Origin: a virus | DNA: 64,000 bases | Virus record (IMG/VR): IMGVR_UViG_3300031485_000046 | Reading direction: 5' to 3' (one strand) | Shown: piece by piece, positions 11,596 to 62,293 of the stretch | Position numbering within the stretch: position 1 is the stretch's first letter | Layout: every line of letters starts with the position of its first letter | Position numbers and translations under genes: made by a program | The notes under the pieces: model-generated | Databases searched by the model: none | The model's input: the letters and a program-made list of their open reading frames with translations, nothing else | Told to the model about the DNA's origin: nothing

Positions 11596-12162
11596 ATGGC
11601 ATATCGAAAATCAGGGAGACCTTTAGCAGTAGCAGAACCGTGGAATGAATCAATCCCAGAAAGGGCGTATGATCTTTGCCTTCTAGGATTGCGTGATGCC
11701 GATTTAGCCACGGCATTCGGAGTTTCTATATATACCATTGATAAATGGAAACAGACTCATCCAGAGTTTAGAGAAGCACTATCCAGAGGTAAAGAACAAG
11801 CTGACGCTAAAGTGGCAGACGCACTTTACCATAAGGCAGTAGGCTATGCCCATAAAGCTGTGGACATCAGAATAGTTGACGGCGAGGTAGTGAAAATACC
11901 ATACACTAAAATCTATCCACCAGATACTACTGCCTGCATATTCTGGTTGAAGAATAGGCAAAGACAGTACTGGACGGATACCAAGCAAAATGTTCATACT
12001 GGTACAGTGGGTGTGGAACATACTATGAGACGTCAACTTGACCTTTCTGATTTCTCCAAAGAAGAACTTGCCCTAGCAGAAAAACTAGCCTCTAGGATGC
12101 TTCAGGAGGGTACTCAGGATGCAGAGTTTACAGAAGAGGGGGAGAATGACGGGGATGAGTAA
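11596..12162 (+). CDS. terS: Terminase small subunit
   Basis: Immediately upstream of and overlapping terL; RBS AAAGGAG; family assignment is recalled resemblance to HTH-type small terminases. Confidence 0.7.
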   Translation: MAYRKSGRPLAVAEPWNESIPERAYDLCLLGLRDADLATAFGVSIYTIDKWKQTHPEFREALSRGKEQADAKVADALYHKAVGYAHKAVDIRIVDGEVVKIPYTKIYPPDTTACIFWLKNRQRQYWTDTKQNVHTGTVGVEHTMRRQLDLSDFSKEELALAEKLASRMLQEGTQDAEFTEEGENDGDE

Positions 12163-13714
12163 ATATGAACGTAAGGACGCCTTAAAACGCCAAAGAGAAA
12201 ACATCATCCCAAAATCAGATAGGTTCCAAGCATTACTTTTGAACCCATTGCAGATAAAAGCAGAAAAATGCCGTAGGTCCCTATTTGAATTTATGAAAGA
12301 ATTCTGGCCAGAAGTATCCACAAGTGACCCTACATGGAATTGGCATCTAGAATACCTAGCTAACGAACTGGAAAGGATGATGTATAGAGTAGCAAACAGA
12401 CAACCAAAAGAATACGACCTCATAATAAACATAAGCCCCGGTACCACAAAGTCTACCCTATGTTCCATAATGCTGAATGCATGGGTGTGGGCTAAATGGC
12501 CTTGGCTCCGATTCATCAACGCATCCTATTCTGGAGCCCTATCTCTGGAACATTCAGAATTGTGTCGTGACCTTATACGGTCAGAACGATACAAAAGGTT
12601 ATTCCCGTATTTGGAAATAAAGCAAGACAAGGATACCAAAACTAACTTTAAAATTTTATATGATGAAGAGCGTCTGGATTCCATAACAGGCGAAGCATCT
12701 ACACTAAAAAAGAGTGGTGGTAACAGATACTCCACCTCCGTAGGCGGCACCTTGACTGGATTCCATGCTGATGTACTGTTAGTAGACGATCCATTGGATC
12801 CGCAAAGAGCTGTATCCGACGTGGAAGTCCTTAAAGCCAACACATGGATAGATCAGACACTATCTACCAGAAAGGTAGATAAAGCGGTAACACCAACCAT
12901 AATCATAATGCAAAGGCTCCATCAGAATGACCCTACGGGTTATCTGCTATCCAAGAAGAATAAAAAGATAAAGCATATCTGCCTACCAGGTGAAATACGG
13001 AATTACAGGAAAAATTTGAAACCTAAAGCCCTAGCCAAGTATTATAAGGATGATCTGTTCGACCCTATAAGAATGCCATGGAAAGTCCTTGACGACCTAA
13101 GAGTAGACCTTGGTGAATTCGGGTATGCTTCCCAGATCGGCCAATCCGCAGTATCAGACAAGGGCAACTTATTCAAGGTAGAACACTTTCAAATCATCCA
13201 TAGTATGGTACCAGACCCAGACATAGTAAGATCCATACGATACTGGGACAAAGCCGGTACAGCTGGAGCTGGAGCATACACGGTGGGGGTACGAATGCTT
13301 GCATTGAATAATGGAAAATTCCTTATCACGGATGTTAAAAGAGGGCGGTGGTCCACAGAACAACGGGAAGCCATCATCAGACAGACTGCAGAAGCCGACG
13401 GTACAGACACAATAATCTGGCATGAACAAGAACCAGGTTCAGGCGGAAAAGAATCCGCAGAAGGCACTATAAGAAACCTAGCTGGATACACCACGTATGC
13501 AGATAGGGTAACTAGAAACAAGGAAATGAGAGCGGATCCATATTCAGTCCAAGTAAATAATGGTAACGTACTGTTACTATATGCTCCGTGGAACCAAGAC
13601 TTCATAGAAGAGCACAGATACTTCCCAAATTCAACATATAAGGATCAGGTAGACGCAGCCTCAGGAGCGTTCTCTAAGGCAGTACGGAAAAAGATAGCCG
13701 GTGCGATAGGATAA
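12155..13714 (+). CDS. terL: Terminase large subunit (ATPase plus RNase H-like nuclease)
   Basis: N-terminal ATPase region; C-terminal nuclease-domain pattern (IRYWDKAGTAGAGAY...DQVDAASGAF); start at ATG 12155 with RBS, overlapping terS stop. Confidence 0.9.
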   Translation: MSKYERKDALKRQRENIIPKSDRFQALLLNPLQIKAEKCRRSLFEFMKEFWPEVSTSDPTWNWHLEYLANELERMMYRVANRQPKEYDLIINISPGTTKSTLCSIMLNAWVWAKWPWLRFINASYSGALSLEHSELCRDLIRSERYKRLFPYLEIKQDKDTKTNFKILYDEERLDSITGEASTLKKSGGNRYSTSVGGTLTGFHADVLLVDDPLDPQRAVSDVEVLKANTWIDQTLSTRKVDKAVTPTIIIMQRLHQNDPTGYLLSKKNKKIKHICLPGEIRNYRKNLKPKALAKYYKDDLFDPIRMPWKVLDDLRVDLGEFGYASQIGQSAVSDKGNLFKVEHFQIIHSMVPDPDIVRSIRYWDKAGTAGAGAYTVGVRMLALNNGKFLITDVKRGRWSTEQREAIIRQTAEADGTDTIIWHEQEPGSGGKESAEGTIRNLAGYTTYADRVTRNKEMRADPYSVQVNNGNVLLLYAPWNQDFIEEHRYFPNSTYKDQVDAASGAFSKAVRKKIAGAIG

Positions 13715-13772: not shown

Positions 13773-13817
13773 TGATACAGATAGATATGGATTCACCTAT
13801 CTGTATCATTTTTTTAT
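13773..13817 (+). terminator. Rho-independent terminator after terL
   Basis: Perfect 12-bp stem TGATACAGATAG/CTATCTGTATCA, 12-nt loop, T-run 13809-13817. Confidence 0.6.
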
Positions 13818-14325
13818 GGTAAAATACTCATACCGTAAGGTAAGCTATGATATAGTAAAAATTGGGTAGTTTGGTAGTTATAGAGGTAGTCAGATAGAAT
13901 AGGAAAAAAACTATCCATAAAAATAACATAGATAGGTAGACTAATATGGTATAATCTATAGAAACCTATATATCAATACAATCCATACTTTTACTATCCA
14001 AATAAGCTAATAATCCAATATAATCCAGATAATCCTAAACAGGTACATATAGTCAATTATAATAAGATACAGAAGAGGCAATCCCAAATCATACTAAGAT
14101 GGTATACCAATATATCTGATACACCATATAACCTATCTCATGTAACCATACGAATATGCATATGGATAAACAGTAAGAACGACATAATACAAATATACAC
14201 CAATTCAATCAAGCTAATAGGAACATACGCAATAAGCTAATATCCGATAAGCCTAAACAGGTACATAGTCAATATCAATATCTAGTCAATAGTAAACTAA
14301 CATGCGAGCCTCCCTAAGGTAGGTC

Positions 14326-14370
14326 CCATAAATTGGTACCATAAATTGGTACCATATCCTGGTTTACCAG
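14326..14370. repeat. Tandem repeat ATAAATTGGTACC (about 2.5 copies)
   Basis: Direct read of sequence. Confidence 0.6.
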
Positions 14371-14688
14371 CATGTGGTAACCTTACCTCCATCCTTACCA
14401 TCACCTATACCACCATTCATCTGGATCTAATCTGCCTATACCCATATTTAATCTATGGTATTTAATAAATGGACACCATATTTCATAAATGGATAGCCAA
14501 AACCATACAAGCCATATCCTATTCCGTATTCCAATCCAATATATAGATACCTATACCTCCACTTCACCATGTACTGGGAAACCCAGTAATTGGTATAAAA
14601 AAATGGGACCTAAGTGTGGTAACCTAGATTTATCTATGTATGATCGTTTATATAGTGAAACCGAGATTTATACCTATTATTTTGTCCT

Positions 14689-15080
14689 CCACTATACCAA
14701 TACGGTGGTATGCTGGATTGTAATCAGGAAATTCAAATACGGAGTAGACCTCGATGTTTTACTATGTATATATAGAACGTATCTTTATAACAGTACCTAC
14801 CAACTATCCACTACGGTGGTGTGTTGGATTGTACTTATAAATATGTGGAAAATAGAAAATGGGAGGTATTTCGATGTTTTACTATGTAGAACCGACGGTC
14901 TGTTTTTGTCAGGAATCTTCCAACTATCCACTACGGTGGTATATTGGGAGATACTTACCGAAACGTGTATGATATGAAATGGGAGGTATTTCGATGTTTT
15001 ACTATGCATATATAGAGATATTGATTGGTTCCCATTTACCCTATATCTTACCCAGTATCCACTACGGTGGTATGTTGGGT
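14689..15080. repeat. Four direct repeats, period about 120-130 bp, with conserved cores CCACTACGGTGGT and GGGAGGTATTTCGATGTTTTACTATG
   Basis: Core copies at about 14689, 14801, 14921, 15051; second core at 14751, 14871, 14991. Confidence 0.7.
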
Positions 15081-15168
15081 AGTATTAATCCGTAGTATGG
15101 GTAGGTACTGTCTAGATTGTTTATCTATATATAGAGAATGAATAAGGTGTGTCCATTCCCAAAATACC

Positions 15169-15697
15169 TCAGGCCCTCCATTATCTAGAATTTTCCCCAA
15201 TTATAAAAATTTGTCAACCTCTGGCAGCTAAATGGAGTATAAGTATCCTACGGATACATGTATAAAAATGAAATCTTGGACACGTATCCAACGGATTATT
15301 TTATAAAAATGGGATTGGATTATTTTTATTTATACAGGTTCAATTTGAGAAAATGCACCTGTTTGAGTTTTCGATGGGTAATTGGTATAACAATAGTTGG
15401 ATTATATAAAAACGGTATGGGATAATACCAGACCCGTTTTGAAGGCATAAATTGCATAAATCAGTTCCGTTTATTTTTTTATTTCCTATGGATGGTACCG
15501 AATATTTCGAGGAGAAAAGGAATCCATAAAAATCATACGAGGTTTTTCATGCTACCTAATCCAAAATACGTGGCGAATTTTCGGCTCCGTAATCGTTTTT
15601 CTAGAGGTGAGCGGTGAATTCATACCGGTAGAAAATGAGCGCCTTCTAGCGCACCGCTGGCGGAGAAACTCATTGGCGGAGAAACTGGCGGAGAAAA
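15169..15697. repeat. Non-coding element B: TCAGGCCCTCCATT box (15169-15182) and three GGCGGAGAAA(C/A) repeats (15659-15669, 15675-15685, 15687-15697)
   Basis: Homologous end motifs and spacing to element A (2881-3398). Confidence 0.6.
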
Positions 15698-15748
15698 TGG
15701 ATGGATTTTTCTGTTTTTCTGTTTTTCTGATTGTTGTACATCGTTTCT

Positions 15749-15797
15749 ACATTCTACATTCTACATTCTACATTCTACATTCTACATTCTGCATTTC
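15749..15797. repeat. Heptanucleotide tandem repeat ATTCTAC, about 7 copies
   Basis: Direct read of sequence. Confidence 0.75.
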
Positions 15798-16019
15798 AGA
15801 AGAATGCATGTGGTACTTTATAAGATGCATGTATGCAATGTCATATGCATCCTTAATTGTCTCCTGATTACTATACAATTATACACTATTCCTATTCCTG
15901 TTTCAATCGTAACAGATATTTTACTATTATATAATAATCTATAGTATTGTGTCATATTGTAGAATATTCTTATATTCATGAATATCAGACAAGCATAATG
16001 CAGAATGCATATTATACAA

Positions 16020-16213
16020 TGCATTATTCAGCTATATTTTTCACAAGCATTTTTTAGTAGTACAATGCATAATGCAGAATGCATCATGCATTATTCAATG
16101 AAACATTTCACAAGTGTTCATACAGTGCATACAATACATTCTGCATCATGCATCATGCATTATTCAGCTATATTTTTCACAAGCATTTTTTAGTAGTACA
16201 ATACATTCTGCAA
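16020..16213. repeat. Two copies of a 50-bp direct repeat (16021-16070, 16157-16206) plus three copies of TTCAATGAAAYATTTCACAAG
   Basis: Direct read of sequence; repeats about 136 bp apart. Confidence 0.6.
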
Positions 16214-16439
16214 TATGCATTGTATAGCATGTATTATTCAATGAAACATTTCACAAGTGTTACTGTATCCGAAGAGTATACAATGCATTTTTCAATGAAA
16301 TATTTCACAAGCGATACTGTGATCGAATTGTATCTGAATGACTATACAATTCACTATTATTTTATAAAACTCTATAGTATTGCAGAATACAGTAGAATTC
16401 AGTAGAATTATATTAAGTGTATAGTCTTTTCATGCATAG

Positions 16440-16467
16440 TTGACATTCTATCGTAGAGTGCTATACT
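16440..16467 (+). promoter_or_regulatory. Sigma-70-type promoter for three-gene cassette
   Basis: TTGACA (16440-16445), 16-nt spacer, TATACT (16462-16467). Confidence 0.5.
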
Positions 16468-16584
16468 GTACTCGTAGCAAGCGAGCGAGCAAGTTCTTTG
16501 ACAACTGAAGAAGCAAGCTCATAACAGAGTAACACTTCTTCAGAACATACGCGCACAACGTTGCGCAGAAAGAGAGTGTGTAGC

Positions 16585-16923
16585 ATGACAACGAGCAGCA
16601 AGAAGAACGTAAACAGTAAGAAAGCTGAAATAGTCGAACAGAAAGCAGTTGAAGTAAAGAAAGAAGAAGTAAGAGAAGCAAAGAAGATTAGCAATACTCA
16701 GAAGTGTGCTGATATGATCATGCAACTTGCGAAAGACGCTAAGTATACTCGCAGTGAAATTTGTAATGCTGTTTCAGATGCACTAACAGCATTAAGCATA
16801 GTCACAGTAAAGACTATGCTTTCAGACTTGCAGAACAGCAAGTATGCAAGACGTTATAGCACTCATACTATCGCAGTAAACAAAGAAACAAAGATTGTAA
16901 CAGTAGCAAGTGAGATAAAATGA
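16585..16923 (+). CDS. Hypothetical lysine-rich protein (cassette gene 1)
   Basis: ATG at 16585 downstream of promoter; 5' leader contains 9-bp inverted repeat CTGAAGAAG/CTTCTTCAG (16503-16545). Confidence 0.55.
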   Translation: MTTSSKKNVNSKKAEIVEQKAVEVKKEEVREAKKISNTQKCADMIMQLAKDAKYTRSEICNAVSDALTALSIVTVKTMLSDLQNSKYARRYSTHTIAVNKETKIVTVASEIK

Positions 16924-17132
16924 AGTATCAGCATGTTGAACGTTCGCAAGCTCTCGCAGTAAGTGACGTTGAAACTTTGCAGAATATTGCAAAAAGACGT
17001 CTGATCGATTTGAAACAGCTTGCAAGAGAAGCAGACTCTTTACTTGTCTTTTCAGTAATAAGAAATACATGTATTCAAATCGATCGAAGCATCGATGATG
17101 CACTTGAAAACGCAAGAAAATTACTGAAGTAG
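16920..17132 (+). CDS. Hypothetical protein (cassette gene 2)
   Basis: ATGA overlap with upstream stop. Confidence 0.5.
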   Translation: MKYQHVERSQALAVSDVETLQNIAKRRLIDLKQLAREADSLLVFSVIRNTCIQIDRSIDDALENARKLLK

Positions 17133-17141
17133 TACAAAAAA

Positions 17142-17185
17142 AGATAGTCAAGTATCTACAATTCGATACTTGACTATCTTTTTAT
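17142..17185 (+). terminator. Rho-independent terminator
   Basis: Perfect 15-bp stem AGATAGTCAAGTATC/GATACTTGACTATCT, 8-nt loop, T-rich tail. Confidence 0.6.
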
Positions 17186-17208
17186 CTCATTTGAAAGAGA
17201 GTGATACT

Positions 17209-17532
17209 ATGTTAGATAATCAGTATGAATTACATCAAAAGATACAAAAAATAGAACACAAGCATATCAGATTACATGCAAGCAATTGTATGTACAAATT
17301 GATGAATATTCAATTGTTACTTGAAGAACAGATTAATCTACTCATTTCTGATATTGTAGCAAATGATGCTTCTGTTAGTGAAATATTGCTAACAGAACGT
17401 CAAAGTACATTTGATAATGAACTTTTTGCGATAACGACAAAAGAAGATAGAAAAGCAATAGCAATACTGCATAATACTATAATCGATAGTATGAATGCAG
17501 TAAGAAAGACAATCATCTATACAGACGAATAA
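17209..17532 (+). CDS. Hypothetical protein (cassette gene 3)
   Basis: ATG at 17209 (MLDNQYELHQ) after weak RBS; ORF track start at 17170 lies inside the terminator. Confidence 0.5.
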   Translation: MLDNQYELHQKIQKIEHKHIRLHASNCMYKLMNIQLLLEEQINLLISDIVANDASVSEILLTERQSTFDNELFAITTKEDRKAIAILHNTIIDSMNAVRKTIIYTDE

Positions 17533-17574
17533 AATTACACAATAGAGCATAATTGATAGCAATTGAATAGAAAA

Positions 17575-17612
17575 GAGTAGTCAATACTAGACTACTCTTT
17601 TCTTTTTTATTC
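17575..17612 (+). terminator. Rho-independent terminator
   Basis: Stem AGAGTAGTC/GACTACTCT, 7-nt loop, T-run. Confidence 0.6.
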
Positions 17613-17750
17613 ATGCATACAATGCATGATGCATCCTGCACTATGCATAGTATAAGCGTTCATAGTAGCATTTGATAACATAACACTACACTATTTATTA
17701 CAATTAGACAATATACTACAATATGATAGTGTAGTGTGTATTGTCTATTC

Positions 17751-17794
17751 TATACACTACAATATAGACAAGTATACACTACAATATAGACAAG
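17751..17794. repeat. Tandem 22-bp direct repeat TATACACTACAATATAGACAAG (2 copies), flanked by inverted repeat ACACTACACTAT/ATAGTGTAGTGT
   Basis: Direct read of sequence. Confidence 0.6.
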
Positions 17795-17998
17795 TATAGA
17801 ATAGAGTATAATAATCTATAGTATGCTACACTATATAGCAATATAATATAATAATATATAATTGTATAGTAAAGCAGATACAATTCAATACAATGACTGC
17901 GCTAGTATACAATGCATGATGCATGATGCATCGTACACAATGCATAATGTAAAATCGATTTTACACGTTGCAGAATGCATGCTGGCTCCTGGCCCCCT

Positions 17999-18152
17999 CT
18001 AAAATTGTGACAAATTTTTCTGGATATTAAAATGGGTAATCCATTATTTTCTAAAGCATATTCATTATTTATTCTACGTATCTTTCACACACCCCTCGTA
18101 AAATTGCTACTGATTTTTCCCAATACTAAAGTGGGTAATCCATTATTTTCGA
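17999..18152. repeat. Two copies of about 55-bp element ending in TGGGTAATCCATTATTTTC (promoter-like)
   Basis: Copies at about 17999-18052 and 18094-18150; degenerate third at about 18340-18375. Confidence 0.55.
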
Positions 18153-18414
18153 TATATCTATTCTGTATGACTGTATAGATAGTATAAGATGCAGTATCCA
18201 ATTTTAACTAATGGATTAATATACCCAATTTACTCATACTATACGTATCTTCATGGATCCGTTTTCTTTCGTCTTTATTTTTACCATACCCCGTCATTCT
18301 GTATGAATTTATCCAAAAATAACCGCATAAATATTTTGTAAAAATTTATATGGGAGTTAAAATGGGTTGATTAGATCAGTAGAGAGGTTAGATCACACTA
18401 GGGAGTTAGATACG

Positions 18415-18452
18415 ATGCATCCTAGCCCGGATCCTGATAGGCTAGGATGCAT
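18415..18452. other. Perfect 13-bp inverted repeat (stem-loop) ATGCATCCTAGCC / GGCTAGGATGCAT with 12-nt loop
   Basis: Direct read of sequence; no T-run follows. Confidence 0.5.
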
Positions 18453-18674
18453 ATAGAAACTATGTTTGTCGTAATATATCTTGAAAACGCATCAGATTCG
18501 TTTCATACTGTGCGATTTCCTTGCTTATGGAAGCTGTTCGTTCTGTTTCAGACGTTGTTTCTATCGTCTAGAGTGAAAAAGATCGAATACCGTGCAAGGA
18601 TTTAACGTGTCATGCCATCCCATTCGGTTGTTCCCTCCGTCCTTGCGACTTTCCTATAAGGGATGGAAACCGGG

Positions 18675-18893
18675 TCATTTCGCCCGCTCCTCCCAGAACC
18701 GTCTGCGTCGCTCCTCCCTGTGACGCTTGATATTCTCCCGCACCCTCTGCGTGCGGGGCGGGAACGTGTTCAGATGGGTCAGCACCGGCTCCACGCTGAC
18801 AGCTCTGCCGAATTCCCTCTCCCATTCCTGGGCGTAGATTTCCTCGTAGGATAACATTTCGCGAAATCTGAGCCCCGTGCATCGTCCGCTCAT
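18675..18893 (-). CDS. Small basic, arginine-rich protein encoded in a GC-rich patch
   Basis: ATG overlaps stop of KdsB-like gene (ATGA); local composition visibly GC-richer than surroundings. Confidence 0.4.
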   Translation of the reverse strand: MSGRCTGLRFREMLSYEEIYAQEWEREFGRAVSVEPVLTHLNTFPPRTQRVRENIKRHREERRRRFWEERAK

Positions 18894-19684
18894 TCCTTAC
18901 CCTCCTTTTTTTCTATAATTTCATCATATTCATTTTCTTTACCAGAGTTTATTATACAACGAACAGCTTCCAAATCAGCAGGAGTATCTACACTAGGTCC
19001 AACTTTTTTTGCTCTTGTTATTTCTACTTTAATGGAAAAATCATGTTCTAATATTCTGAGCTGTTCCAGTGATTCTGCTGATGCCAAAGGTGTTTGTGGC
19101 ATTTTGGCATAATAATGGATTAAGAAACGTCTAGTAAATCCATAAATTCCTATATGTCGGTAGATGGGATATACTTCTTCCGGATCTCTAATAAAAGGGA
19201 TAGGAGACCTACTGAAATATAAAGCATCTCCATTTATTCTGAATGCCACTTTTACTACCGATGGATCATTGATAGTAGCGGTATCTGTAATAAGGGCACA
19301 TATCGTAGCAGATTCCGTAGCCCTATTTTCAGTTTTATAAAATAATGATATTACTTCATCAATCATACAAGGATTAAGTAATGGTTCATCCCCTTGTATG
19401 TTTATCACTATATTATTATTAGAGAATTTTTTAGCTATTTCCACAACTCTACTAGTTCCGTTTGTATGATTTGGAGAAGTTAGCATAGCTTCTCCACCGA
19501 AATTATTTACAGCCTGCACGATTCTTTCATCGTCAGTAGCTACAATCAACCGGTCAAGTAAAGTAGATCGTGAGGCTCGCTCGTACACTCTCTGGATCAT
19601 TGTTTTTCCGCATATATCAGCTAGAGGTTTACCGGGGAGCCTTGTAGAATTGTATCTAGCGGGGATAACTCCTAAAGTTATCAT
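18890..19684 (-). CDS. kdsB: CMP-Kdo synthetase-like cytidylyltransferase (3-deoxy-manno-octulosonate cytidylyltransferase family)
   Basis: IPARYNSTRLPGKPL, VATDDE, GGE, QGDEP, ALYFSR, HIGIYGF, LEQLR, VDTPADLE match KdsB signature blocks as recalled. Confidence 0.85.
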   Translation of the reverse strand: MITLGVIPARYNSTRLPGKPLADICGKTMIQRVYERASRSTLLDRLIVATDDERIVQAVNNFGGEAMLTSPNHTNGTSRVVEIAKKFSNNNIVINIQGDEPLLNPCMIDEVISLFYKTENRATESATICALITDTATINDPSVVKVAFRINGDALYFSRSPIPFIRDPEEVYPIYRHIGIYGFTRRFLIHYYAKMPQTPLASAESLEQLRILEHDFSIKVEITRAKKVGPSVDTPADLEAVRCIINSGKENEYDEIIEKKEGKE

Positions 19685-21095: not shown

Positions 21096-22556
21096 GTGAG
21101 TAGGATAGAAAATATCAGTACCAACGAATTGGTTGGGCAATTACAGCGGATTACAGCTATGGCTGAACTGGCTACAAGAATGAATGTCGGTGCTAGGATG
21201 GGAATGCAGTATGACGGCCAACGGGATATTGCAAAAGCTCTTGGCTACCCACAAACAATACGGTACAACGACCTCCTTGCCGCATATACCCGTCAGGATA
21301 TGGCGAAAGCCATTATAGATCGTCCCGTAAAATCTACTTGGCGTGGAGATTTCAAGCTAGTAGAAACCCACAGGGACGATGATACGCAACTCGAAACAGC
21401 TTGGTCTACATTATATAGGAAATTGCACATAAAACAGAATTTCCTTAGAGTGGACAAGCTAGCCTGCCTCGGTAATTATGCTCTTCTTTTTCTTGGTTTC
21501 AATGATGTGAATAGTCCTGAAGAATTGATACGACCTGTTTCTGCTGGAGTAGGACGTGAATTGCTGTATTTGAAACCGTTTGGACAGAATGTCATTCAGA
21601 TCAAAGATTGGGAAGATGATACAAGTTCACCTGAATATGGAATGCCGCTTATTTATGAAGTAGACATTGGAGAAGCATCATCTAAAAAGAGCCGAACTGT
21701 CAGCATCCATCGGTCAAGGATTGTTCATGTAGCTTTCGACCTACTTGAATCAGAGTATGAAGGTGCTCCTGTTCTAGAAGTTGTTTTTAACCGTCTGAAA
21801 GACCTTGAAAAGCTAGTAGGCGGTTCTGCTGAAATGTTCTGGAGAGGTGCTAGACCTGGATATGCAGGTAAAATTGATCCAGAATACATGCTGACGAAAG
21901 ATACGGAAGAGGGATTGAAACGCCAGCTGGATGAGTTTGAAAATAATCTGCGAAGGATACTCATGCTTGAAGGTGTTACACTCGATAGCCTTGAGCCGCA
22001 GGTAGTTGACCCGTCTATGCACGTTGATATCCAGATTCAGATGATTTCTGCTATTACTGGTATTCCTAAGAGAATTCTTACAGGAAGTGAGCGAGGTGAT
22101 CTTGCTTCTACGCAAGACAAAGATAACTGGCTCGACCTTATCCAAATGCGACGGGAAGAATATGCTGAACCTAAGATCATTCGAGCAACCATTGACCGTT
22201 GTATTGAATTTGGTGTGCTTCCTAAGCCTGAAAAGGAAACATACAAAATAAAATGGCAGGATCTTTATGCACCGTCTGTTAAGGATCAAGCGGACATTGG
22301 GCAGATACGTTCGCTTGCCTTGAAACATTATACGTACAATCCTGAAGCAGAGCAGTTTATCCCGTTTGAAGCGTTCCTTACATTCTTCCTTGGTTTGGAA
22401 GATGAGGAAGTGGAGTATATCAAAAAGCTCCAGCAAACAAGTGAAAGGATATTGACGCCTGAATTAAAGGAACTTGCGAATGAAAATGCACCAACACGGA
22501 GAGAACGCCCTCCGCGGAGAGGAATACCTCGAGAGGATGAAGAACTAGAAAAGTGA
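21096..22556 (+). CDS. Portal protein
   Basis: Size and position (first gene of head module after terminase region); GTG start abuts RBS so true start may be downstream. Confidence 0.75.
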   Translation: MSRIENISTNELVGQLQRITAMAELATRMNVGARMGMQYDGQRDIAKALGYPQTIRYNDLLAAYTRQDMAKAIIDRPVKSTWRGDFKLVETHRDDDTQLETAWSTLYRKLHIKQNFLRVDKLACLGNYALLFLGFNDVNSPEELIRPVSAGVGRELLYLKPFGQNVIQIKDWEDDTSSPEYGMPLIYEVDIGEASSKKSRTVSIHRSRIVHVAFDLLESEYEGAPVLEVVFNRLKDLEKLVGGSAEMFWRGARPGYAGKIDPEYMLTKDTEEGLKRQLDEFENNLRRILMLEGVTLDSLEPQVVDPSMHVDIQIQMISAITGIPKRILTGSERGDLASTQDKDNWLDLIQMRREEYAEPKIIRATIDRCIEFGVLPKPEKETYKIKWQDLYAPSVKDQADIGQIRSLALKHYTYNPEAEQFIPFEAFLTFFLGLEDEEVEYIKKLQQTSERILTPELKELANENAPTRRERPPRRGIPREDEELEK

Positions 22557-24634: not shown

Positions 24635-24661
24635 TCACAAACATAAGGAGGAGTGCTGAAT

Positions 24662-25783
24662 ATGGAACCCAATGTCTATATGGATTTTCTTGCTAACGGA
24701 GCGGCTCAGGGAGAAGTTGCCCAGAACCTTCAGGTGAATGGTCGGCTTGATCCTGCTATGCTTCGTCCGTATATTGGAAGGGATGGAGCATCCTACATCA
24801 CCGTCTGCAAACACGGTGCTGATCCCAAGGATCCTAAGAGTTATCAGTCTATCCGCGTGAATTCTGGTGCAACTCTTCGCAGAGAAGAGTGGCAGTATCT
24901 GGACGAGGCTGTTCTCAATGTTTCTCGGTATCGTCTTGGCGGTATTGCTGACCTTGAGGCAAACGGACTTGTTTACAACCTCAACAATGCTATGGGAACC
25001 ACCGTTCTTGAGTACCATGATGTATCTGACGCTTTCGAGGCAGAACTTACGATGGATGGGGTTACTAGGAGCAAGGGAGACCGTGTGAATTTCGGTGCAA
25101 AGTACCTGCCCATTCCTATCATTCATGTGGACTACGAGATTAATGCTCGTGTTCTTGCCGCTTCTCGTAGCCTTGGTAATGCGCTCGATACGACTCAGGC
25201 AGAAGTTGCCGCTCGTAAGGTTATGGAGAAGCTAGAGAAAATGATGTTCACCAGCGAAACTTACTCGTTTGGTGGGGGAACAATCTATTCTCTTGTCAAT
25301 CATCCTCATCGTAATCCTGTTACTCTCACGGTGAATTGGGATGATAGTACGTCTACTTCTTCTGGTGATCCTGTCATTACAGGTGCAAAGATCATTCAGG
25401 ATGTTCTTGCTATGAAGCAGGCAAGCATTGATGCTTACCACTATGGTCCCTGGATGCTATACATTCCGACCGCATACGAAACAGTCCTTGACTCGGATTA
25501 TGATACCGTTACGCCTGGCACTACGATTCGGGAGAGGATTATGAAGATCGAAGGTATCAAAGGTATCAAGGTTATTGATGTACTCGCTTCCAATAACGTG
25601 CTCCTTGTGCAGATGACCCCCGATGTGGTTCGCCTTGTGAAGGGCATGGCTATTCAGAACGTGGAATGGCAGACTGAGGGACGCTTCATCAATAAGTACA
25701 AAGTTATGACGATCCAGGTTCCTCAGGTTCGTTCTGACTACAACCAGAAGAGCGGCATCGTTCATCTCGCTCCTGCACCCTAA
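24662..25783 (+). CDS. Major capsid protein
   Basis: Size and position; ATG 24662 with AAGGAGG RBS. Confidence 0.7.
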   Translation: MEPNVYMDFLANGAAQGEVAQNLQVNGRLDPAMLRPYIGRDGASYITVCKHGADPKDPKSYQSIRVNSGATLRREEWQYLDEAVLNVSRYRLGGIADLEANGLVYNLNNAMGTTVLEYHDVSDAFEAELTMDGVTRSKGDRVNFGAKYLPIPIIHVDYEINARVLAASRSLGNALDTTQAEVAARKVMEKLEKMMFTSETYSFGGGTIYSLVNHPHRNPVTLTVNWDDSTSTSSGDPVITGAKIIQDVLAMKQASIDAYHYGPWMLYIPTAYETVLDSDYDTVTPGTTIRERIMKIEGIKGIKVIDVLASNNVLLVQMTPDVVRLVKGMAIQNVEWQTEGRFINKYKVMTIQVPQVRSDYNQKSGIVHLAPAP

Positions 25784-25830: not shown

Positions 25831-26259
25831 ATGGTTGAAAGTAAGGCAGTAAAGAAAAAGGTAGTAAAGAAAAAGGTTGTTGAAAAGAAAGAACCTGAAA
25901 TTACTACTTCCAAAACTGAGGTGATTACTCCTCAGATTGTTGTTACCCCTCCGGGAATGTGTACATGGAGGAAAAAGGAAGGTGCTACATTCAGGCTTGG
26001 TAATGGTAAGAAAGTAAAGCCGAATGAAGTATTCAAGGCGTATCCTCGTGAAATTCCGCCTGCATTTCGTGACCTGTTTGAATTGCTTGAAGGTGATGAG
26101 AATGCTGTGGAACGAGTGATTACCGCTCCTTCTAAGTTTGCTATTGGTGAACGTGAAGACGGTATGTTTGATGTAGTTGATCCTGATGGTAAGTGTATCA
26201 ATGATGTTCCGCTCGGTAAAGAGGATGCCGAAAAACTGCTTATAGCACTCTCTACTTGA
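25831..26259 (+). CDS. Hypothetical protein with lysine-rich N-terminus
   Basis: RBS AAGGAGG; 142 codons. Confidence 0.6.
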   Translation: MVESKAVKKKVVKKKVVEKKEPEITTSKTEVITPQIVVTPPGMCTWRKKEGATFRLGNGKKVKPNEVFKAYPREIPPAFRDLFELLEGDENAVERVITAPSKFAIGEREDGMFDVVDPDGKCINDVPLGKEDAEKLLIALST

Positions 26260-26263
26260 TACA

Positions 26264-26977
26264 ATGCGGGCGTGGAATACTCCGAGGATATGGGATAAAG
26301 GTGAATGTTGGATAATAGGAGGAGGACCTTCTATTATGCGACAGTTCCATATTCCTGAGAATGTGATTGAGGCGGTTAGAGAAAAAAGATTACCGCTTTC
26401 TGCATATTCTCCGTACATGGAAAGCATTCATTCTAAGCATATCATCGGAGTAAACATGGCATTCCAGCTAGGAAATTGGGTTGATTTTTGTTTCTTCGGA
26501 GACGATGGTTGGTTTCGGGACCATAGAAAAGAATTAGCCCAATTTACTGGTGTAAGGGTATCTTGCGCACCTATGTTCAGTAAAAATACGTACCATGCAG
26601 ATAATGGGGAACGTATTAAGTACCTAGCGCAGGATCCTAAAAAATCACACGGTATTAGTGAAGTACCTTACACCGTATGTTGGAATGCAAATAGCGGAGC
26701 GGCGGCAATCAGCCTAGCTTCTCATCTAGGTGCTAAAAAGATTGTTCTGTTAGGATTCGATATGCAGTTAGATCCTAATGGAAATAGTCATTGGCACAAA
26801 GAGTATCAAATGAATCCAGCAAAACGATCCGTGTTTCCTCGACACCTTAGAGGGTTTCCAATTATCGCCGCGGATGCTAAACGGATGGGCATCGAAATAC
26901 TAAATGCCTCACCTGAAAGCGTAATAGACGATTTTCCTAAAATGACAGTGGAGGCGATATTGAATGGTTCTCCATAA
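26264..26977 (+). CDS. Sialyltransferase-like (CMP-sugar-dependent) glycosyltransferase candidate 1
   Basis: Motifs CWIIGGGPS, SGAAAISLASHLGAKKIVLLGFD, HWHKE resemble GT42/GT29-type and Maf/DUF115-type transferases (recalled). Confidence 0.6.
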   Translation: MRAWNTPRIWDKGECWIIGGGPSIMRQFHIPENVIEAVREKRLPLSAYSPYMESIHSKHIIGVNMAFQLGNWVDFCFFGDDGWFRDHRKELAQFTGVRVSCAPMFSKNTYHADNGERIKYLAQDPKKSHGISEVPYTVCWNANSGAAAISLASHLGAKKIVLLGFDMQLDPNGNSHWHKEYQMNPAKRSVFPRHLRGFPIIAADAKRMGIEILNASPESVIDDFPKMTVEAILNGSP

Positions 26978-27578
26978 AAACAATATCGCGGTTATAGGAC
27001 ACGGTCCTAGCACTCGTGGAAGGAAACTAGGCAGTTTCATTAACCTTTGTGATACGGTCATTCGCATGATCGAATGTGATTGGCAGGATGCAGAAGATTA
27101 CGGTAGTAAATATACGATCGGTGTATATGCTACGGGAGGATCTGACGATTTTACAAAGGTGATTGAACGAAAGCCTTCTCTTTGCTGGTGGGTGTACGTT
27201 GCGGCTGGAACCCGTCCTTCTACGGCGATGAATGATGATACAGTAGATGCTCCAGGTGTTGCGGGTCGTCCGATACGGTGGTTACGAAGAACCGTATGGG
27301 ATTGGATCGGTGATAATAAAAAGTTCTCTAGAGGTACTGCTGCCGCGATTGCGTCTATGGCGATCCTAAAACCCACTACAGTTCATTTAGTTGGGTTTGA
27401 TGATGTTGCAAGGGGTGGAATGCTGAAAGGAGCATATCATCCTCCTGAGTTGCAACAGTACCTCAAAGAACAAGGAAAGACACTTGCCAGAAGTGAAACA
27501 GACCATGATTGGAATAATGAAGGCACCGTACTCCAACGTGCCGCAGACTATTACGGAGTTGAGGTGAATTTTCTATGA
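26964..27578 (+). CDS. Sialyltransferase-like glycosyltransferase candidate 2 (paralogue)
   Basis: Motifs IAVIGHGPS, RGTAAAIASMAILKPTTVHLVGFDD, HDWNNE; RBS GGAGGCG. Confidence 0.6.
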   Translation: MVLHKNNIAVIGHGPSTRGRKLGSFINLCDTVIRMIECDWQDAEDYGSKYTIGVYATGGSDDFTKVIERKPSLCWWVYVAAGTRPSTAMNDDTVDAPGVAGRPIRWLRRTVWDWIGDNKKFSRGTAAAIASMAILKPTTVHLVGFDDVARGGMLKGAYHPPELQQYLKEQGKTLARSETDHDWNNEGTVLQRAADYYGVEVNFL

Positions 27579-28813
27579 AGACAATATCAGAGGAATATAT
27601 TCGCCTTAATTCTGAGGTACACAACCAGCGGAGAGGGTACGGTAATTCAGCCAATCGGTTTGCTAAGGACATTGGGCTTGTTTTGCATCAGTTCCACACA
27701 ATGTCTTTTCTGGATTATGGATGCGGAAAAGAATCTTTGATCCGTTGTATTACGAAGGACTATCCGTATCTTGCCCAGAGAGCAAAGTATGGAGCATACG
27801 ATCCAGCTATACCGCACCGGTCCGTTAAGCCGGAAGAGCAGTATGATATGGTTATTTCTACAGATGTTCTTGAACACATTGAACCTGAATATCTGTCAGC
27901 CGTGCTGGAAGAGATCAAAGGATATGCTAAAAAAGGCGTCTATCTGAATATCTGTATGCGACCGTCAGGAGATATTCTACCTGATGGTCGAAATGCCCAT
28001 CTGATCGTTAAAGATGCCCCGTGGTGGCGTGAAACACTATCCAAAGCGTTTGAAGGATGGGCACTGGAAGAACGGGATGTACTTGACTCTTGGCGCAATT
28101 ATACAGTAGTATTGACACCACCTAAGATTCAAAAGCCATTAAATATCGTCTGTTTCTACTGGAAAGGTACGAGTAATCGGTACCCAGGATGGGACGATGT
28201 GGATTTGGCAAAGATTTATGTCAACAATCTGTATAATGGCGTCCGTCGAAATTTGAACAAGGATTACAAGTTCATCTTGTTTTCCAATGATATTGAAGAT
28301 GGGCTGGATCCACATGTAGAGATACGAAAGTTCCAGCCTATCTCGTGGACAGGGTGCAATCCTAAGTTGTATGTGCATAGCCCAGATGCAGGATTAGAGG
28401 GAAGGGTGCTTACGTTTGATATGGATACTATCATCGTAGGAGACCTTACTAATTTTGCAGAATACGATGGGGCTTTCACTACACGGATGGAACCTGACCG
28501 AAGAAGAGTAACAGCAGGAGACCTGCTAGGATTTGAAGCAGGTGAAACGTACCAGTTATGGGAGAATTATAAGAATATCTCCAAGTATGCTGAAAAGTAT
28601 CAAGGAGATGAAAGGGAGATCTACAAACTTCTTTGGAAACATTTGCTGTACTGGCAAGAAGAAATACCCGGGCAGTTGGTTTCTTATAAAGGTGATGTTC
28701 GTCCTAATCAGAACAGACTGCCTAGAAATGCAAGAATTGTAAGTGCGCACGGTAAGCCTCGTCCGCATGAGATCAATGCGGAATGGATTAAATCGTGTTG
28801 GTGGGGAAAATGA
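27575..28813 (+). CDS. Fusion protein: N-terminal class I SAM-dependent methyltransferase, C-terminal domain of unknown (possibly transferase) function
   Basis: FLDYGCGKESL (motif I-like) and MVISTDVLEHIEP (motif II-like); C-terminal FDMDTIIVGD. Confidence 0.6.
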   Translation: MKTISEEYIRLNSEVHNQRRGYGNSANRFAKDIGLVLHQFHTMSFLDYGCGKESLIRCITKDYPYLAQRAKYGAYDPAIPHRSVKPEEQYDMVISTDVLEHIEPEYLSAVLEEIKGYAKKGVYLNICMRPSGDILPDGRNAHLIVKDAPWWRETLSKAFEGWALEERDVLDSWRNYTVVLTPPKIQKPLNIVCFYWKGTSNRYPGWDDVDLAKIYVNNLYNGVRRNLNKDYKFILFSNDIEDGLDPHVEIRKFQPISWTGCNPKLYVHSPDAGLEGRVLTFDMDTIIVGDLTNFAEYDGAFTTRMEPDRRRVTAGDLLGFEAGETYQLWENYKNISKYAEKYQGDEREIYKLLWKHLLYWQEEIPGQLVSYKGDVRPNQNRLPRNARIVSAHGKPRPHEINAEWIKSCWWGK

Positions 28814-29526
28814 AACCGTATGTAGAATCTCCCATTATCATAACAGGTTGTCCACGAAGCGGAACTAGCATCATTTCTGGGATGTTAGAAATATGTGGTG
28901 CATTTGCAGGAACTATTCCACAGCCTACGAAACACGAAACAAGAGGCATGGGAGAGAATCGGGTTATATATGAGGATGTTGTTAAACCGTATATTCAGAG
29001 TTTGCAAGCGGATCCATCTGGACAATGGCCATTGATGGATTCTGAAAAACTGATGATTCCTATCGACTGGGAATCAATGATTTCAGACGCCTTGCACAAG
29101 GATGGCTATATGGGAGGCAAATGGCTATATAAGAGTAATACTGCGGCTCTTATGTGGAAAGTGTGGTCCTACGCCTATCCTAGCGCCAAATGGGTCCTAG
29201 TACGCAGGCGTACAGGTGACATAGTTTCTTCATGTTTGCAGACCTCGTATATGAAAGCATTCAAAAATCCTGCATATCGTAAGGAAATTGGAGCGGAAAC
29301 AGAATCAGAAGCATGGATCCATTGGGTACATAAGTATGAAGAAGCCTTTGTAGGGATGTTGACTGCGGGAGTTAATTGTAAGGTTGTCTGGCCGGAAAGA
29401 TTCGTAAGAAACGATTATCAACAGTTGTATGAAGTAATTGAATGGGTAGGGCTTGAATGGAAATCTTCTGTAGCAGATTATCTAGACCCAAAGCTATGGA
29501 AGAATGAACGGAAGGAGGAGTGCTGA
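28810..29526 (+). CDS. Sulfotransferase
   Basis: IIITGCPRSGTSIISGML (5'-PSB PAPS-binding motif) and VLVRRRTGDIVSS (3'-PB-like); ATG 28810 overlaps upstream stop (ATGA). Confidence 0.7.
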   Translation: MKPYVESPIIITGCPRSGTSIISGMLEICGAFAGTIPQPTKHETRGMGENRVIYEDVVKPYIQSLQADPSGQWPLMDSEKLMIPIDWESMISDALHKDGYMGGKWLYKSNTAALMWKVWSYAYPSAKWVLVRRRTGDIVSSCLQTSYMKAFKNPAYRKEIGAETESEAWIHWVHKYEEAFVGMLTAGVNCKVVWPERFVRNDYQQLYEVIEWVGLEWKSSVADYLDPKLWKNERKEEC

Positions 29527-29894
29527 TGGCTAGAGTAACTCCAGCGGAAGTAAAATTGATCCTTCCTGATTCTGAACTGACAGATCCTACGATCACTGCG
29601 TTTATCACCAGTGCGAATAATCTGGTAAATGCAGTGCTTACGGATTACTTGACGGAGCCGTTGCTTACCGAAGTAGAAAAATGGCTGACCGCGCACATGA
29701 TTGCTTCTACAGTTGAGAGAATGGCAACTAGGGAAGGTGCCGGCGGTGCAGAAATTTACTACACGGGTAAGTACGGACAGAATCTAACATCCACACCATA
29801 CGGCCAGATGGTGCTGTCGTTAGATCCATCAGGAAGAATGGCGGCTCTCGGTGGCAAGACTGTCACCATGATTGCCATTAAGAATTTTGATTGA
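29527..29894 (+). CDS. Putative head-tail connector/adaptor protein
   Basis: Position and size; ATG 29527 with AGGAGG RBS. Confidence 0.55.
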
Positions 29895-43930: not shown

Positions 43931-44581
43931 TTATTCTGCTACAAGAATTTCTGCAAGAGATTCATCTAGTTTATATACCGCGTCCCATAACGCATTACAA
44001 AAATCATTGAATTCCTTCATAGCGGGAGGGTTCCCTCTAAGTTTGTAAATATGTCGCCATTCTCGCATATTACCTGTAACAAGCATTTTTGTTGGAGTAC
44101 ATTCAGGCAATAGGTATTTAGCTGTATCATTCCCGTGCTTTTCTTGAATCTTTTTTACAAGCTGGGTTCCTTTATACAACCAATCCAATACTTCTGCATC
44201 TTGTTCAATAGCTTCAGGAAGTATGAACCCAATAGGATTCTTAATGATGGATTTAAGTGACCATCGTGTGCTTTGTACGGAAAAGGAAAGCAACCTATGC
44301 CGTGCAAATTGCTGAAGAAGAGCCCTAGAGATGTTAGAAACTTCCACGACGAGGACAATGTGTTCTATCACACTTTCATGACCGTCTTTGATTCGTTTAA
44401 GGACATACTGTTTTGCTGTTTCCGTATCATACCCATCTTCTTTCCAGAATACAATTAGGTCTTCATACTCATCAGTTATTGCAGGAAAAGCCTCTTGATT
44501 CACACAAATCTTAGATCCATGTAAAGCGTTTTGCAAAACAGTGGCATCTAACACTTTTACAGTCACAGGAAACTCTCTCAT
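43931..44581 (-). CDS. thyX: Flavin-dependent thymidylate synthase ThyX
   Basis: RHRLLSFSVQS matches ThyX RHR(x7)S motif; start at ATG 44579-44581 with AGAGGAG RBS. Confidence 0.85.
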   Translation of the reverse strand: MREFPVTVKVLDATVLQNALHGSKICVNQEAFPAITDEYEDLIVFWKEDGYDTETAKQYVLKRIKDGHESVIEHIVLVVEVSNISRALLQQFARHRLLSFSVQSTRWSLKSIIKNPIGFILPEAIEQDAEVLDWLYKGTQLVKKIQEKHGNDTAKYLLPECTPTKMLVTGNMREWRHIYKLRGNPPAMKEFNDFCNALWDAVYKLDESLAEILVAE

Positions 44582-44749
44582 AAAATCATCACTCCTCTTA
44601 CGTAAATACATACGTATCCTTGGCGAATCCTTGCGTCAGGATCGCATTCTTTTAGAAAAGAGATATAGAATCATGTCTAAACTGTTTTTTATTGCAGGAA
44701 AGCGTATTATCCGTCAGAATGACGTGTGCCCATCCTGCGATGTTAAATC

Positions 44750-45265
44750 CTAATAAGCACCCGACGTAAAACAGGAAGAAGCTATGCATATCAAATCTCC
44801 TATTGTTCCAGAGTTTTCTATAATATGGTCAAAACAGAATCCATCTAATTCCGTTTCTGACGGATGATTCTTCTGTTCTTCTGTAAGACCATTATCATAG
44901 TTAGGACGTTCGATACGAACCGTAATCACTTTGTATCCATTCTTTTTTCCCCATTGTCGCATAATCTGGATCTCATTCAAATACCGGCAGTCTGTTATTG
45001 CTATTTGATTTGGATAACTGTTAGTCTCCAGCATGCGACAGACAAGATTCACCCAAGTATCTCGATTATATTCCCTTACGGTAGAAGCAAGATCCTGTAG
45101 AAATTTACGACCTCGTTCATCTTTGTGCCCATTCCAACCCAACTTGATAGCAAAATCCTTAAGCCGACCAGCAAAGGAATATTTATTGTACCCATCTAAT
45201 CCTAACGCAAATGTATCTTTACCGGCTCTAGCTTTACCAGATATAAGAATGATCGTTTTATTCAT
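44750..45265 (-). CDS. Deoxynucleoside monophosphate kinase (P-loop)
   Basis: ISGKARAGKDT P-loop; size and context. Confidence 0.75.
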   Translation of the reverse strand: MNKTIILISGKARAGKDTFALGLDGYNKYSFAGRLKDFAIKLGWNGHKDERGRKFLQDLASTVREYNRDTWVNLVCRMLETNSYPNQIAITDCRYLNEIQIMRQWGKKNGYKVITVRIERPNYDNGLTEEQKNHPSETELDGFCFDHIIENSGTIGDLICIASSCFTSGAY

Positions 45266-62292: not shown

Positions 62293-62293
62293 C

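Follow-up and report, generated by a model that had tools for sequence, protein, structure and literature searches.

The 64,000-nucleotide stretch of viral DNA analysed here (IMG/VR record IMGVR_UViG_3300031485_000046; hereafter the window) carries, at positions 28810 to 29526 of the plus strand, an intact open reading frame (ORF) encoding a 238-residue protein, ST, which was assigned to the Sulfotransfer_3 family on the basis of Pfam, an AlphaFold2 model, Foldseek and conserved residues. Its ATG at 28810 shares the tetranucleotide ATGA with the TGA (28811–28813) of the upstream gene, which encodes a 412-residue fusion protein, and a Shine-Dalgarno-like purine run, GGTGGGG, lies immediately 5' of this start. 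The TGA stop codon of ST (29524–29526) overlaps the ATG (29526) of the following head-tail adaptor gene as TGATG, so that ST is coupled on both sides, and the ribosome-binding site of the adaptor gene, GGAAGGAGGAG, is found inside the 3' end of the ST coding region. An alternative GTG start at 28795 in the ORF listing would lengthen the frame slightly; the ATG start is the one used by a 99%-identical database protein (P0001) and by independent gene calls on four contigs. The GC content of the surrounding gene cassette (0.44) is like that of the adjoining structural genes, so recent horizontal transfer is not indicated. A promoter and terminator scan of 24–30.5 kb gave results at or under shuffle expectation, and no tRNAs or Rfam families were found.

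A preliminary description of this locus had proposed a phage sulfotransferase adjoining the head-tail connector gene, coupled through ATGA to a methyltransferase fusion and carrying both motifs that bind the donor 3'-phosphoadenosine 5'-phosphosulfate (PAPS). The overlap at 28810–28813 agrees with this, as does the adjoining gene (DUF4054/phrog_302, followed in homologues by tail-terminator and tail-tube genes). Profile searches also support it: ST matched Pfam Sulfotransfer_3 (PF13469) with 44.8 bits against a curated gathering cut-off of 27 (E = 2.3e-11), over profile positions 1–215 of 216, and many of its homologues carry a precomputed PF13469 annotation. No family for ST was found in PHROGs or NCBIfam.

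The fold of ST was predicted with AlphaFold2 on alignment A1, which comprises the window ST and 71 homologues (72 sequences), giving a model with a predicted local distance difference test (pLDDT) score of 90.8 and a predicted template modelling (pTM) score of 0.88. In a Foldseek search with this model, the human tyrosylprotein sulfotransferases TPST1 and TPST2 ranked first (E = 4e-6 to 5e-5, query TM-score (TMq) 0.55–0.61), followed by Stf1, tick TPST, Stf9, and the CurM and OLS sulfotransferase domains. All 17 PDB fold matches at E <= 1e-3 were sulfotransferases; P-loop kinases, the competing identity raised in the preliminary description, were weaker than 1e-3. TPST1 and TPST2 also came first when the A1 family profile was compared with all PDB sequences (E ~0.012–0.019), whereas a single-sequence phmmer search of the PDB gave a sole match, the 5'-phosphosulfate-binding (PSB) loop of Stf9 (2z6v; E = 0.56), and no TPST. 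Because the sequence significance is marginal, ST is not a demonstrable member of the TPST family.

Both donor-binding motifs are present, and their key residues are invariant or nearly so. IIITGCPRSGTSIISGML corresponds to ST residues 9–26 and includes the predicted 5'-PSB loop, I9...G13-C-P-R16-S17-G18-T19-S20, placed after strand 9–13 and before helix 19–28. VLVRRRTGDIVSS corresponds to residues 129–141 and falls within the 3'-phosphate-binding (3'-PB) motif V131-R-R133-R-T-G-D-I-V-S-S141, which spans strand 127–131 and helix 135–144. Across the 72 sequences of A1, G13, R16, S17, G18, T19, S20, E49, K108, R132 and R133 are invariant and S141 is near-invariant. In the PDB profile search, the family PSB consensus 'GcaRSGT' (GCPRSGT in the window) aligned with the TPST sequence 'GVPRSGT', part of 'GGVPRSGTT', and the family consensus 'fpnakWiivrrrtgdives' (window AYPSAKWVLVRRRTGDIVSS) aligned with 'FPNAKFLLMVRDGRASVHS'; the profile alignment with TPST1 ('VRDGRASVHS') thus places R133 and S141 on the 3'-PB arginine and serine. 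The catalytic residues of TPST2 are Arg78, Glu99 and Lys158 (PMC10951654). K108, a putative catalytic residue of ST, and R133 are 25 residues apart, the same spacing as between Lys158 and Arg183 of TPST2; in the segment of ST that corresponds to that of Glu99, E49 alone among the acidic residues is invariant, which makes it a putative catalytic base. Mid-cassette paralogues and fusion proteins only ~30% identical to ST retain the same set of residues. Judged by these residues and by the model, the gene product belongs to the PAPS-sulfotransferase superfamily and appears catalytically intact, and it and its relatives form a new, virus-dominated clade within this known superfamily.

Five closely packed plus-strand genes, of which ST is the last, separate the adaptor gene from the major capsid protein gene at 24653–25783 (plus strand), the product of which is HK97-like (DUF6260, Pfam E = 8e-23) and has annotated major capsid protein homologues in GenBank phages. 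The next gene (25831–26259), named small142 after its 142-residue product, matched no Pfam or NCBIfam family. It is followed at 26264–26977 by Maf1, encoding a 237-residue protein that resembles CMP-ulosonic-acid transferases of the Maf/CstII type. Maf1 matched phrog_4603, 'alpha-2,3-sialyltransferase' (E = 3.7e-34), and its AlphaFold2 model (pLDDT 94.4) retrieved the Maf flagellin glycosyltransferase 5mu5 (E = 1.3e-5) and CstII (1ro8; E = 2.5e-5), with MptE and ST8SiaIII as the next Foldseek matches. The sequence GGGPS, a form of the GxGPS nucleotide-sugar motif, is invariant in the Maf1 family. The window Maf1 falls under the Pfam MptE-like threshold (19.8 vs 34.6 bits), and several of its homologues carry a precomputed PF01973 annotation.

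A second, divergent sialyltransferase/Maf-like protein of 204 residues is encoded at 26964–27578 and carries the motifs GxGPS (IGHGPS) and LVGFDD. It gave a weak match to GT29 (E = 0.022), aligned with the Maf1 profile in hhalign over the G...LLGFD motif, and is kept in close relatives only. The 412-residue protein encoded directly upstream of ST (27575–28813) is a methyltransferase-glycosyltransferase (MT-GT) fusion, with the methyltransferase at residues ~38–160 (Methyltransf_23, E = 2.3e-7; phrog_24759 methyltransferase, E = 2e-19) and the glycosyltransferase at ~218–409 (phrog_1962, E = 4.5e-21). Downstream of ST, the DUF4054 head-tail adaptor gene (29526–29894; GTG alternative at 29520) was recognised at 24.2 bits against a Pfam cut-off of 23.9 and by phrog_302, 'virion structural protein'; the tail genes that follow its homologues are present in the gene calls of three related loci (L008–L010). 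Overlaps between start and stop codons run in series from Maf1 to the adaptor gene.

Further virion genes in the window include the terminase (12119–13714), the portal (21096–22556), a gene for a DUF2213 protein, and head-tail and tail genes up to the tape-measure and tail-tip proteins. On the minus strand at 18890–19684 lies a gene for KdsB, the CMP-Kdo synthetase (3-deoxy-manno-octulosonate (Kdo) cytidylyltransferase), identified with both Pfam and NCBIfam (CTP_transf_3, E = 1.5e-56; TIGR00466, 212 bits vs 155; NF003952, 286.7 bits vs 193). Two further members of this phage family (L135 and L024/L107) also carry KdsB-like genes. Enzymes of the Maf and CstII types take CMP-activated ulosonic acids as donors, and KdsB is a candidate supplier of the CMP-sugar for the Maf-like transferases, with Kdo as the presumed transferred sugar. 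Genes for PAPS synthesis (cysC, cysDN) did not turn up in the window ORFs that were scanned. An opposite-strand replication module encodes PolA with an intein, a clamp-loader-like ATPase, RecA, SbcCD-like proteins, ThyX, QueC and a preQ transporter, and the window ORFs that were scanned yielded no integrase, which together with the presence of a phage replisome suggests a lytic lifestyle.

ST has many relatives. A word-indexed protein database yielded 272 homologues with E values down to 1e-161, nearly all of 230–250 residues and ~50% identical, and a library of 1.84 billion representatives yielded 348 clusters at E <= 1e-30. In IMG/VR, 456 contigs were found to encode an ST relative and 427 the capsid protein, and the sugar-modification genes that lie between capsid and adaptor are, from their gene content, a cassette present in more than 400 IMG/VR contigs. 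A tblastn search of 50,697 GenBank phage records with ST, by contrast, gave no match, and megablast with window positions 22–34 kb gave none either. The earlier remark that sulfotransferases are uncommon in phage genomes is therefore apt for GenBank phages and PHROGs; it does not extend to IMG/VR, and proteins with a sulfotransferase fold are also annotated in a cyanophage and in giant viruses.

Gene order was compared in the 42 ST-ascertained loci that also contain the capsid gene. In these loci and in the window the order is capsid, small142, Maf1, 2–12 further genes, ST and adaptor; one locus (L022) is rearranged. Gene content was counted separately in 38 complete loci, which are those ascertained through the capsid gene that extend to the adaptor gene. 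ST and Maf1 occur together in 28 of these, ST alone in 2, Maf1 alone in 8, and none lacks both. In each of the 30 complete loci that carry ST, no other gene of 170 residues or more stands between it and the adaptor; Maf1, present in 36 of the 38, is the usual first enzyme of the cassette, and small142 is present in every one. A Maf-like gene is therefore nearly always found at one end of the cassette and ST at the other in about four loci in five. Maf-like, glycosyltransferase-fusion and variable sugar genes all lie between capsid and adaptor in the 38 loci, with L108 having no glycosyltransferase there. This context had gone unnoticed in the preliminary description: by gene order, ST is the conserved terminal gene of a glycosylation cassette in the capsid module, usually with a Maf/sialyltransferase-like enzyme first.

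The interior of the cassette is variable and holds 0–10 sugar genes. Sugar enzymes encoded there include GDP-mannose 4,6-dehydratase, NAD-dependent epimerases, PseB/CapD-like and RmlD-like enzymes, and glycosyltransferases of the GT2 and GT9 families, alongside several methyltransferase families, transketolase-like enzymes and short-chain dehydrogenase/reductase enzymes; extra Sulfotransfer_3 paralogues account for 4 of 79 cassette-interior proteins scanned. The smallest cassettes consist of small142 and Maf1 (L112, L115, L156), small142 and ST (L108), or small142, a Maf1 fusion and ST (L144, L148). Median pairwise identities are 51% (ST), 50% (Maf1), 64% (capsid protein) and 35% (small142); the levels for ST and Maf1 indicate that both end genes are long-standing residents of the lineage while the middle of the cassette turns over. 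Brevundimonas phage MaInes, the closest isolated relative by capsid protein (34% identity), has the capsid gene, one unrelated small ORF and the adaptor gene, without the cassette, and small142 was not detected in this phage.

A shorter ST paralogue of 214–220 residues occurs mid-cassette in ten loci (L030, L043, L047, L058, L064, L075, L135, L137, L138 and L178), usually between glycosyltransferases of the MT-GT type. This paralogue retains the catalytic residues but has lost the tryptophan-rich C-terminal signature of the terminal ST. Its sequence suggests that two distinct sulfation steps may take place. Distances for small142 correlate best with those for ST (Spearman 0.66) and less well with those for the capsid protein (0.24), and a targeting subunit or a head accessory protein are candidate roles for its product. 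The possibility that small142 is itself the sulfate acceptor was dropped, as it has no conserved tyrosine, serine or threonine column. One further locus (L001, 6507–13283; GCA_900198705.1, FZPS01000165.1, a 2.6-Mb record) encodes an ST identical to database protein P0008; it is preceded by NrdG/NrdD and dUTPase genes and not by capsid and cassette, and is followed by normal adaptor and tail genes. This record stems from a rearranged phage or from an artefact of assembly or concatenation.

Links between ST and Maf-like proteins were also found elsewhere. Ten members of the ST family are unusually long: five join Sulfotransfer_3 to an MptE-like domain, three join tetratricopeptide repeats (TPR) to ST, one is an ST–ST fusion and one has no identified partner. 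The ST–MptE-like fusion P0232 (L182, 8001–9458) lies between SU10-type capsid and adaptor genes, beside a Methyltransf_23 gene, and a second, P0268 (L181, 226–1752), lies just upstream of an SU10 adaptor gene. The SU10-like phages that carry these fusions are podovirus-like and have a capsid family unrelated to that of the window phage. The contigs of the TPR–ST fusions and of fusion P0250 are too short for informative gene context. When the Maf1 profile was compared by hhalign with the MptE-like half of P0250, the match was weak (probability 3%) with the correct motifs aligned; the question was settled by the fold search instead.

The sole clear match in a cultured organism is a prophage of Euryhalocaulis caribicus JL2009 (L097, 4997–10612; NZ_ASJA01000008.1, about 57–78 kb), in which an overlapping Maf1-like/ST gene pair (ST 35% identity) lies downstream of the terminase and portal genes. 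The portal protein of this prophage has a C-terminal anti-CBASS Acb1 domain (E = 2e-34), an unusual fusion. The remaining matches in genome collections are mostly phage-type contigs binned into metagenome-assembled genomes (MAGs) of various phyla; a contig encoding an 87%-identical ST was binned with a Mariniphaga (Bacteroidota) MAG, which is a weak hint at a host. By gene content and by the fusions, ST is genetically and evolutionarily tied to a Maf/CstII-like transferase and to variable sugar-nucleotide and glycosyltransferase genes.

The reading that we tentatively prefer, and to which we give nearly an even chance, is that ST is the last enzyme of a virion-modification cassette and would carry out PAPS-dependent sulfation of an acidic glycan linked to the capsid. 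ST would be a soluble, cytoplasmic, PAPS-dependent enzyme, co-transcribed and translationally coupled with head genes. During assembly, the Maf/CstII-like enzyme or enzymes would place a CMP-activated acidic sugar on a head protein, probably the major capsid protein, which is the likely acceptor of the modification; as the phage itself encodes a CMP-Kdo synthetase, Kdo or a related ulosonic acid is the probable donor. The MT-GT fusion may then elaborate the glycan, and ST would O-sulfate it with host PAPS as donor, giving a strongly anionic, sulfated glycan coat on the capsid. From the gene set we infer that the enzyme is active, that PAPS is its donor, that the virion is its target, that it acts on a glycan and not on a protein, and which sugar is involved; modification of a head protein in the cytoplasm is suggested by analogy with Maf-dependent O-glycosylation of flagellin and with the glycan shield of mycobacteriophages. 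The part of the cassette between the Maf-like and ST genes, which is variable, would act as an exchangeable locus for glycan diversity. The favoured acceptor is a glycan, and most plausibly the conserved acidic sugar added by Maf1, since this would reconcile a conserved ST with a variable cassette and would explain the ST–MptE-like fusions. A broader version, which is possible although somewhat doubtful, is that an exchangeable cassette builds a hypervariable, sulfated, acidic 'capsid glycocalyx' on the heads of a large group of uncultivated tailed phages.

Several observations weigh against sulfation of a capsid glycan. ST keeps a median identity of ~51% while the glycan genes vary, which would be odd unless its target is the conserved first sugar. 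L108 has ST and no glycosyltransferase between capsid and adaptor, Maf1 is missing from 2 of the 38 complete loci, and the 8 loci with Maf1 and no ST indicate that the two enzymes are separable. The nearest structures are protein-tyrosine and not carbohydrate sulfotransferases. The kdsB gene lies 9 kb away on the other strand, and its cyanophage counterparts are usually read as modifiers of the host envelope. The PAPS supply of the host is presumed, the sole clue to that host being the Mariniphaga binning.

The alternative that fares best is that ST acts like a TPST, sulfating a hydroxyl of a head protein directly (tyrosine, or serine/threonine) and independently of any glycan made by its neighbours; we consider this unlikely, though it deserves serious attention. 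TPST1/2 and tick TPST are the top fold and profile neighbours, and ST shares with them an arginine-type PSB loop (PRSGT) and the Glu/Lys arrangement, but the likeness is modest (TM ~0.6, 16–20% identity, profile E ~0.01) and Stf1, Stf9 and the CurM sulfotransferase, which have non-protein acceptors, score nearly as high. The conservation of ST whatever the content of the cassette would fit a protein target; Maf1, however, is also present in 28 of the 30 complete loci that carry ST. The ST-only locus L108 and the Maf1-only loci indicate that each enzyme can work alone, which counts for a direct action on protein, but L108 is one 17.8-kb contig and its glycosyltransferases may lie elsewhere in the genome. 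The TPR domains joined to three STs typically bind protein substrates, which counts for this alternative, whereas the MptE-like fusions point to a shared pathway. An invariant acidic D-x-D-Y283 sequence in the capsid protein (residues 280–283; 25 homologues) resembles a TPST acceptor site, although the invariant tyrosine may be merely structural. The data fit both glycan and direct protein sulfation; in its most radical version, the latter would make ST a prokaryotic-virus analogue of TPST that sulfates the capsid protein itself.

Another possibility, which we regard as improbable, is that the cassette together with KdsB remodels the host envelope, acting on Kdo of the lipopolysaccharide (LPS) core or capsule, to exclude superinfecting phage or to prevent re-adsorption to lysed cells. 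Kdo is a sugar of LPS and of capsules. Phage kdsA/kdsB and glycosyltransferase genes are conventionally taken as cell-surface modifiers (PMC12801897), and phage enzymes that modify host capsule sugars are documented. The location between capsid and adaptor and the overlapping codons, however, imply that the cassette genes are expressed late and tied stoichiometrically to head proteins, and an apparently lytic phage would gain little from remodelling the envelope at that stage. ST is found in the head modules of three lineages with different head genes, in the capsid–adaptor interval in two of them and downstream of the portal in the Euryhalocaulis prophage, and this recurrence of the operon position in unrelated lineages makes envelope remodelling less likely. 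Maf-type enzymes, moreover, act on cytoplasmic proteins (flagellins) and are not known to act on lipid-linked glycans, in keeping with the 5mu5 fold match. Finally, that ST is a P-loop kinase-like or degenerate protein with no sulfotransferase activity, serving a structural or chaperone role in head assembly, is highly improbable: the folds are related and dTMP and adenylate kinases appear in the fold lists at E 1e-3 to 1e-2, but the best fold matches are all sulfotransferases, the Pfam score exceeds the curated cut-off, the PSB loop has no kinase Walker-A motif (GxxxxGK(S/T)), the R-x7-S motif specific to PAPS enzymes is invariant, and even paralogues of ~30% identity keep the putative catalytic Glu and Lys unchanged.

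Other features of the window were recorded in passing. Between the terminase and kdsB, positions 13800–18600 form an AT-rich segment of ~4.8 kb (GC 0.33–0.35) with almost no credible ORFs. Direct-repeat families are dense in it: 120-nt periodic repeat units at 14687–15089, each with the palindrome CCACTACGGTGGT, ATGCAT-rich iterons at 15746–16320 and 17605–17990, and a 99-nt repeat at 17993–18150. No tRNA or Rfam match was found in this repeat region; an origin of replication, an array of iterons or of promoters, and a set of non-coding RNA genes are all candidate interpretations. On the minus strand at 55511–57355, an intein (Intein_splicing, E = 5.5e-9; PT-HINT) lies between segments of the family-A DNA polymerase, and a separate upstream ORF at 57319–58590 encodes uracil-DNA glycosylase (UDG) and 3'–5' exonuclease domains. 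QueC (61597–62436, minus strand; E = 1e-55) and a YhhQ/Vut_1 queuosine-precursor transporter (46440–47090, minus strand; TIGR00697, 164 bits) together suggest 7-deazaguanine modification of the phage DNA; ThyX and a deoxynucleoside monophosphate kinase are encoded at 43931–45265, near the QueC/YhhQ genes.

The only characterised modification of phage virions found in literature searches is the glycan shield of some mycobacteriophages, and the field is barely explored. Elsewhere, sulfation is linked to the extracellular matrices of eukaryotes, to rhizobial Nod factors and to mycobacterial lipids. If the preferred reading of capsid-glycan sulfation is correct, sulfation would be on record for a bacterial-virus particle for the first time, flagellin-type (Maf) chemistry and sulfation would come together in phage heads, and glycosylated virions would be widespread among the phages of Gram-negative and anaerobic communities, related versions of the cassette being present in SU10-like phages and an alphaproteobacterial prophage. 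A coat that is sulfated, anionic and Kdo-like could alter immune sensing of the capsid by the host and its recognition by antibodies, as well as adhesion to mucus or polymers and colloidal stability. The variable interior and more conserved end genes of the cassette suggest diversifying selection on the capsid surface. With 238 residues, the compact ST is also a candidate minimal sulfotransferase for biotechnology.

ST was compared with the known enzymes nearest to it. It shares with TPST1/TPST2 and tick TPST (5wrj, 3ap1-3, 8w5z) the PRSGT PSB loop, the R-x7-S motif, the Lys-to-Arg spacing and a glutamate as possible base, and differs from them in being ~100 residues shorter, in having no membrane anchor or lumenal context, in a segment between PSB loop and glutamate that is 12 residues longer, and in an identity of 16–20%. 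The bacterial enzymes Stf1 (2zq5), Stf9 (2z6v) and CurM/OLS (4gbm, 4gox) belong to the same Pfam superfamily and fold (Foldseek E 2.7e-5 to 3.4e-4), and Stf9 has a PSB-loop sequence in common with ST. These proteins are cytoplasmic and PAPS-dependent, as is predicted for ST, but they are larger (275–390 residues), act on glycolipid or acyl-carrier-bound substrates, and none is viral or encoded in a virion module. Other viral sulfotransferases are annotated in Synechococcus phage S-SCSM1 (A0A6M2ZHD0), in BFVD entry A0A516MBH1, in Hokovirus and in Marseillevirus. A0A516MBH1 (237 residues) is a close structural match to ST (TM 0.72, E = 8e-10), whereas the sequences of these viral proteins are at most 19% identical to ST, gave no tblastn match at E = 1e-3 and have no described function; the paper on cyanophage S-SCSM1 does not mention its sulfotransferase gene.

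Searches of the literature, in which journal coverage was incomplete, found no paper on virion sulfation, a phage sulfotransferase, capsid modification with nonulosonic acids, or this cassette. In the mycobacteriophages Che8, Rita and their relatives, glycosyltransferases encoded by the phage coat capsid and tail-tube subunits to form a glycan shield (Freeman 2023, as cited in PMC11256854 and PMC12619734). The window phage resembles these in having phage genes for glycosyltransferases and, in the preferred reading, modification in the cytoplasm; in the mycobacteriophage systems, by contrast, no sulfation is reported and the hosts are Actinobacteria, and the window phage instead has Maf/CstII-like enzymes and ST. 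The glycosyltransferase genes of phage Maravista lie close to the genome's 3' end and not between capsid and adaptor (PMC11256854).

The flagellin glycosylation islands with Maf (Magnetospirillum 5mu5, Campylobacter, Aeromonas; also CstII) share with the cassette the fold of Maf1, the GxGPS motif and a CMP-sugar synthetase, here encoded by the phage, as well as, in the reading proposed here, the cytoplasmic O-glycosylation of a self-assembling structural protein with variable accessory sugar genes. They differ in that the proposed acceptor is the capsid and not flagellin, and in that the phage Maf1 is a minimal 237-residue domain without flanking domains. No flagellin island in which Maf is fused to, or forms a pair with, a sulfotransferase is known to us, and literature searches were also negative. 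The paired ST, the insertion between capsid and adaptor, and the variable interior set this system apart from both phage-virion and flagellin glycosylation.

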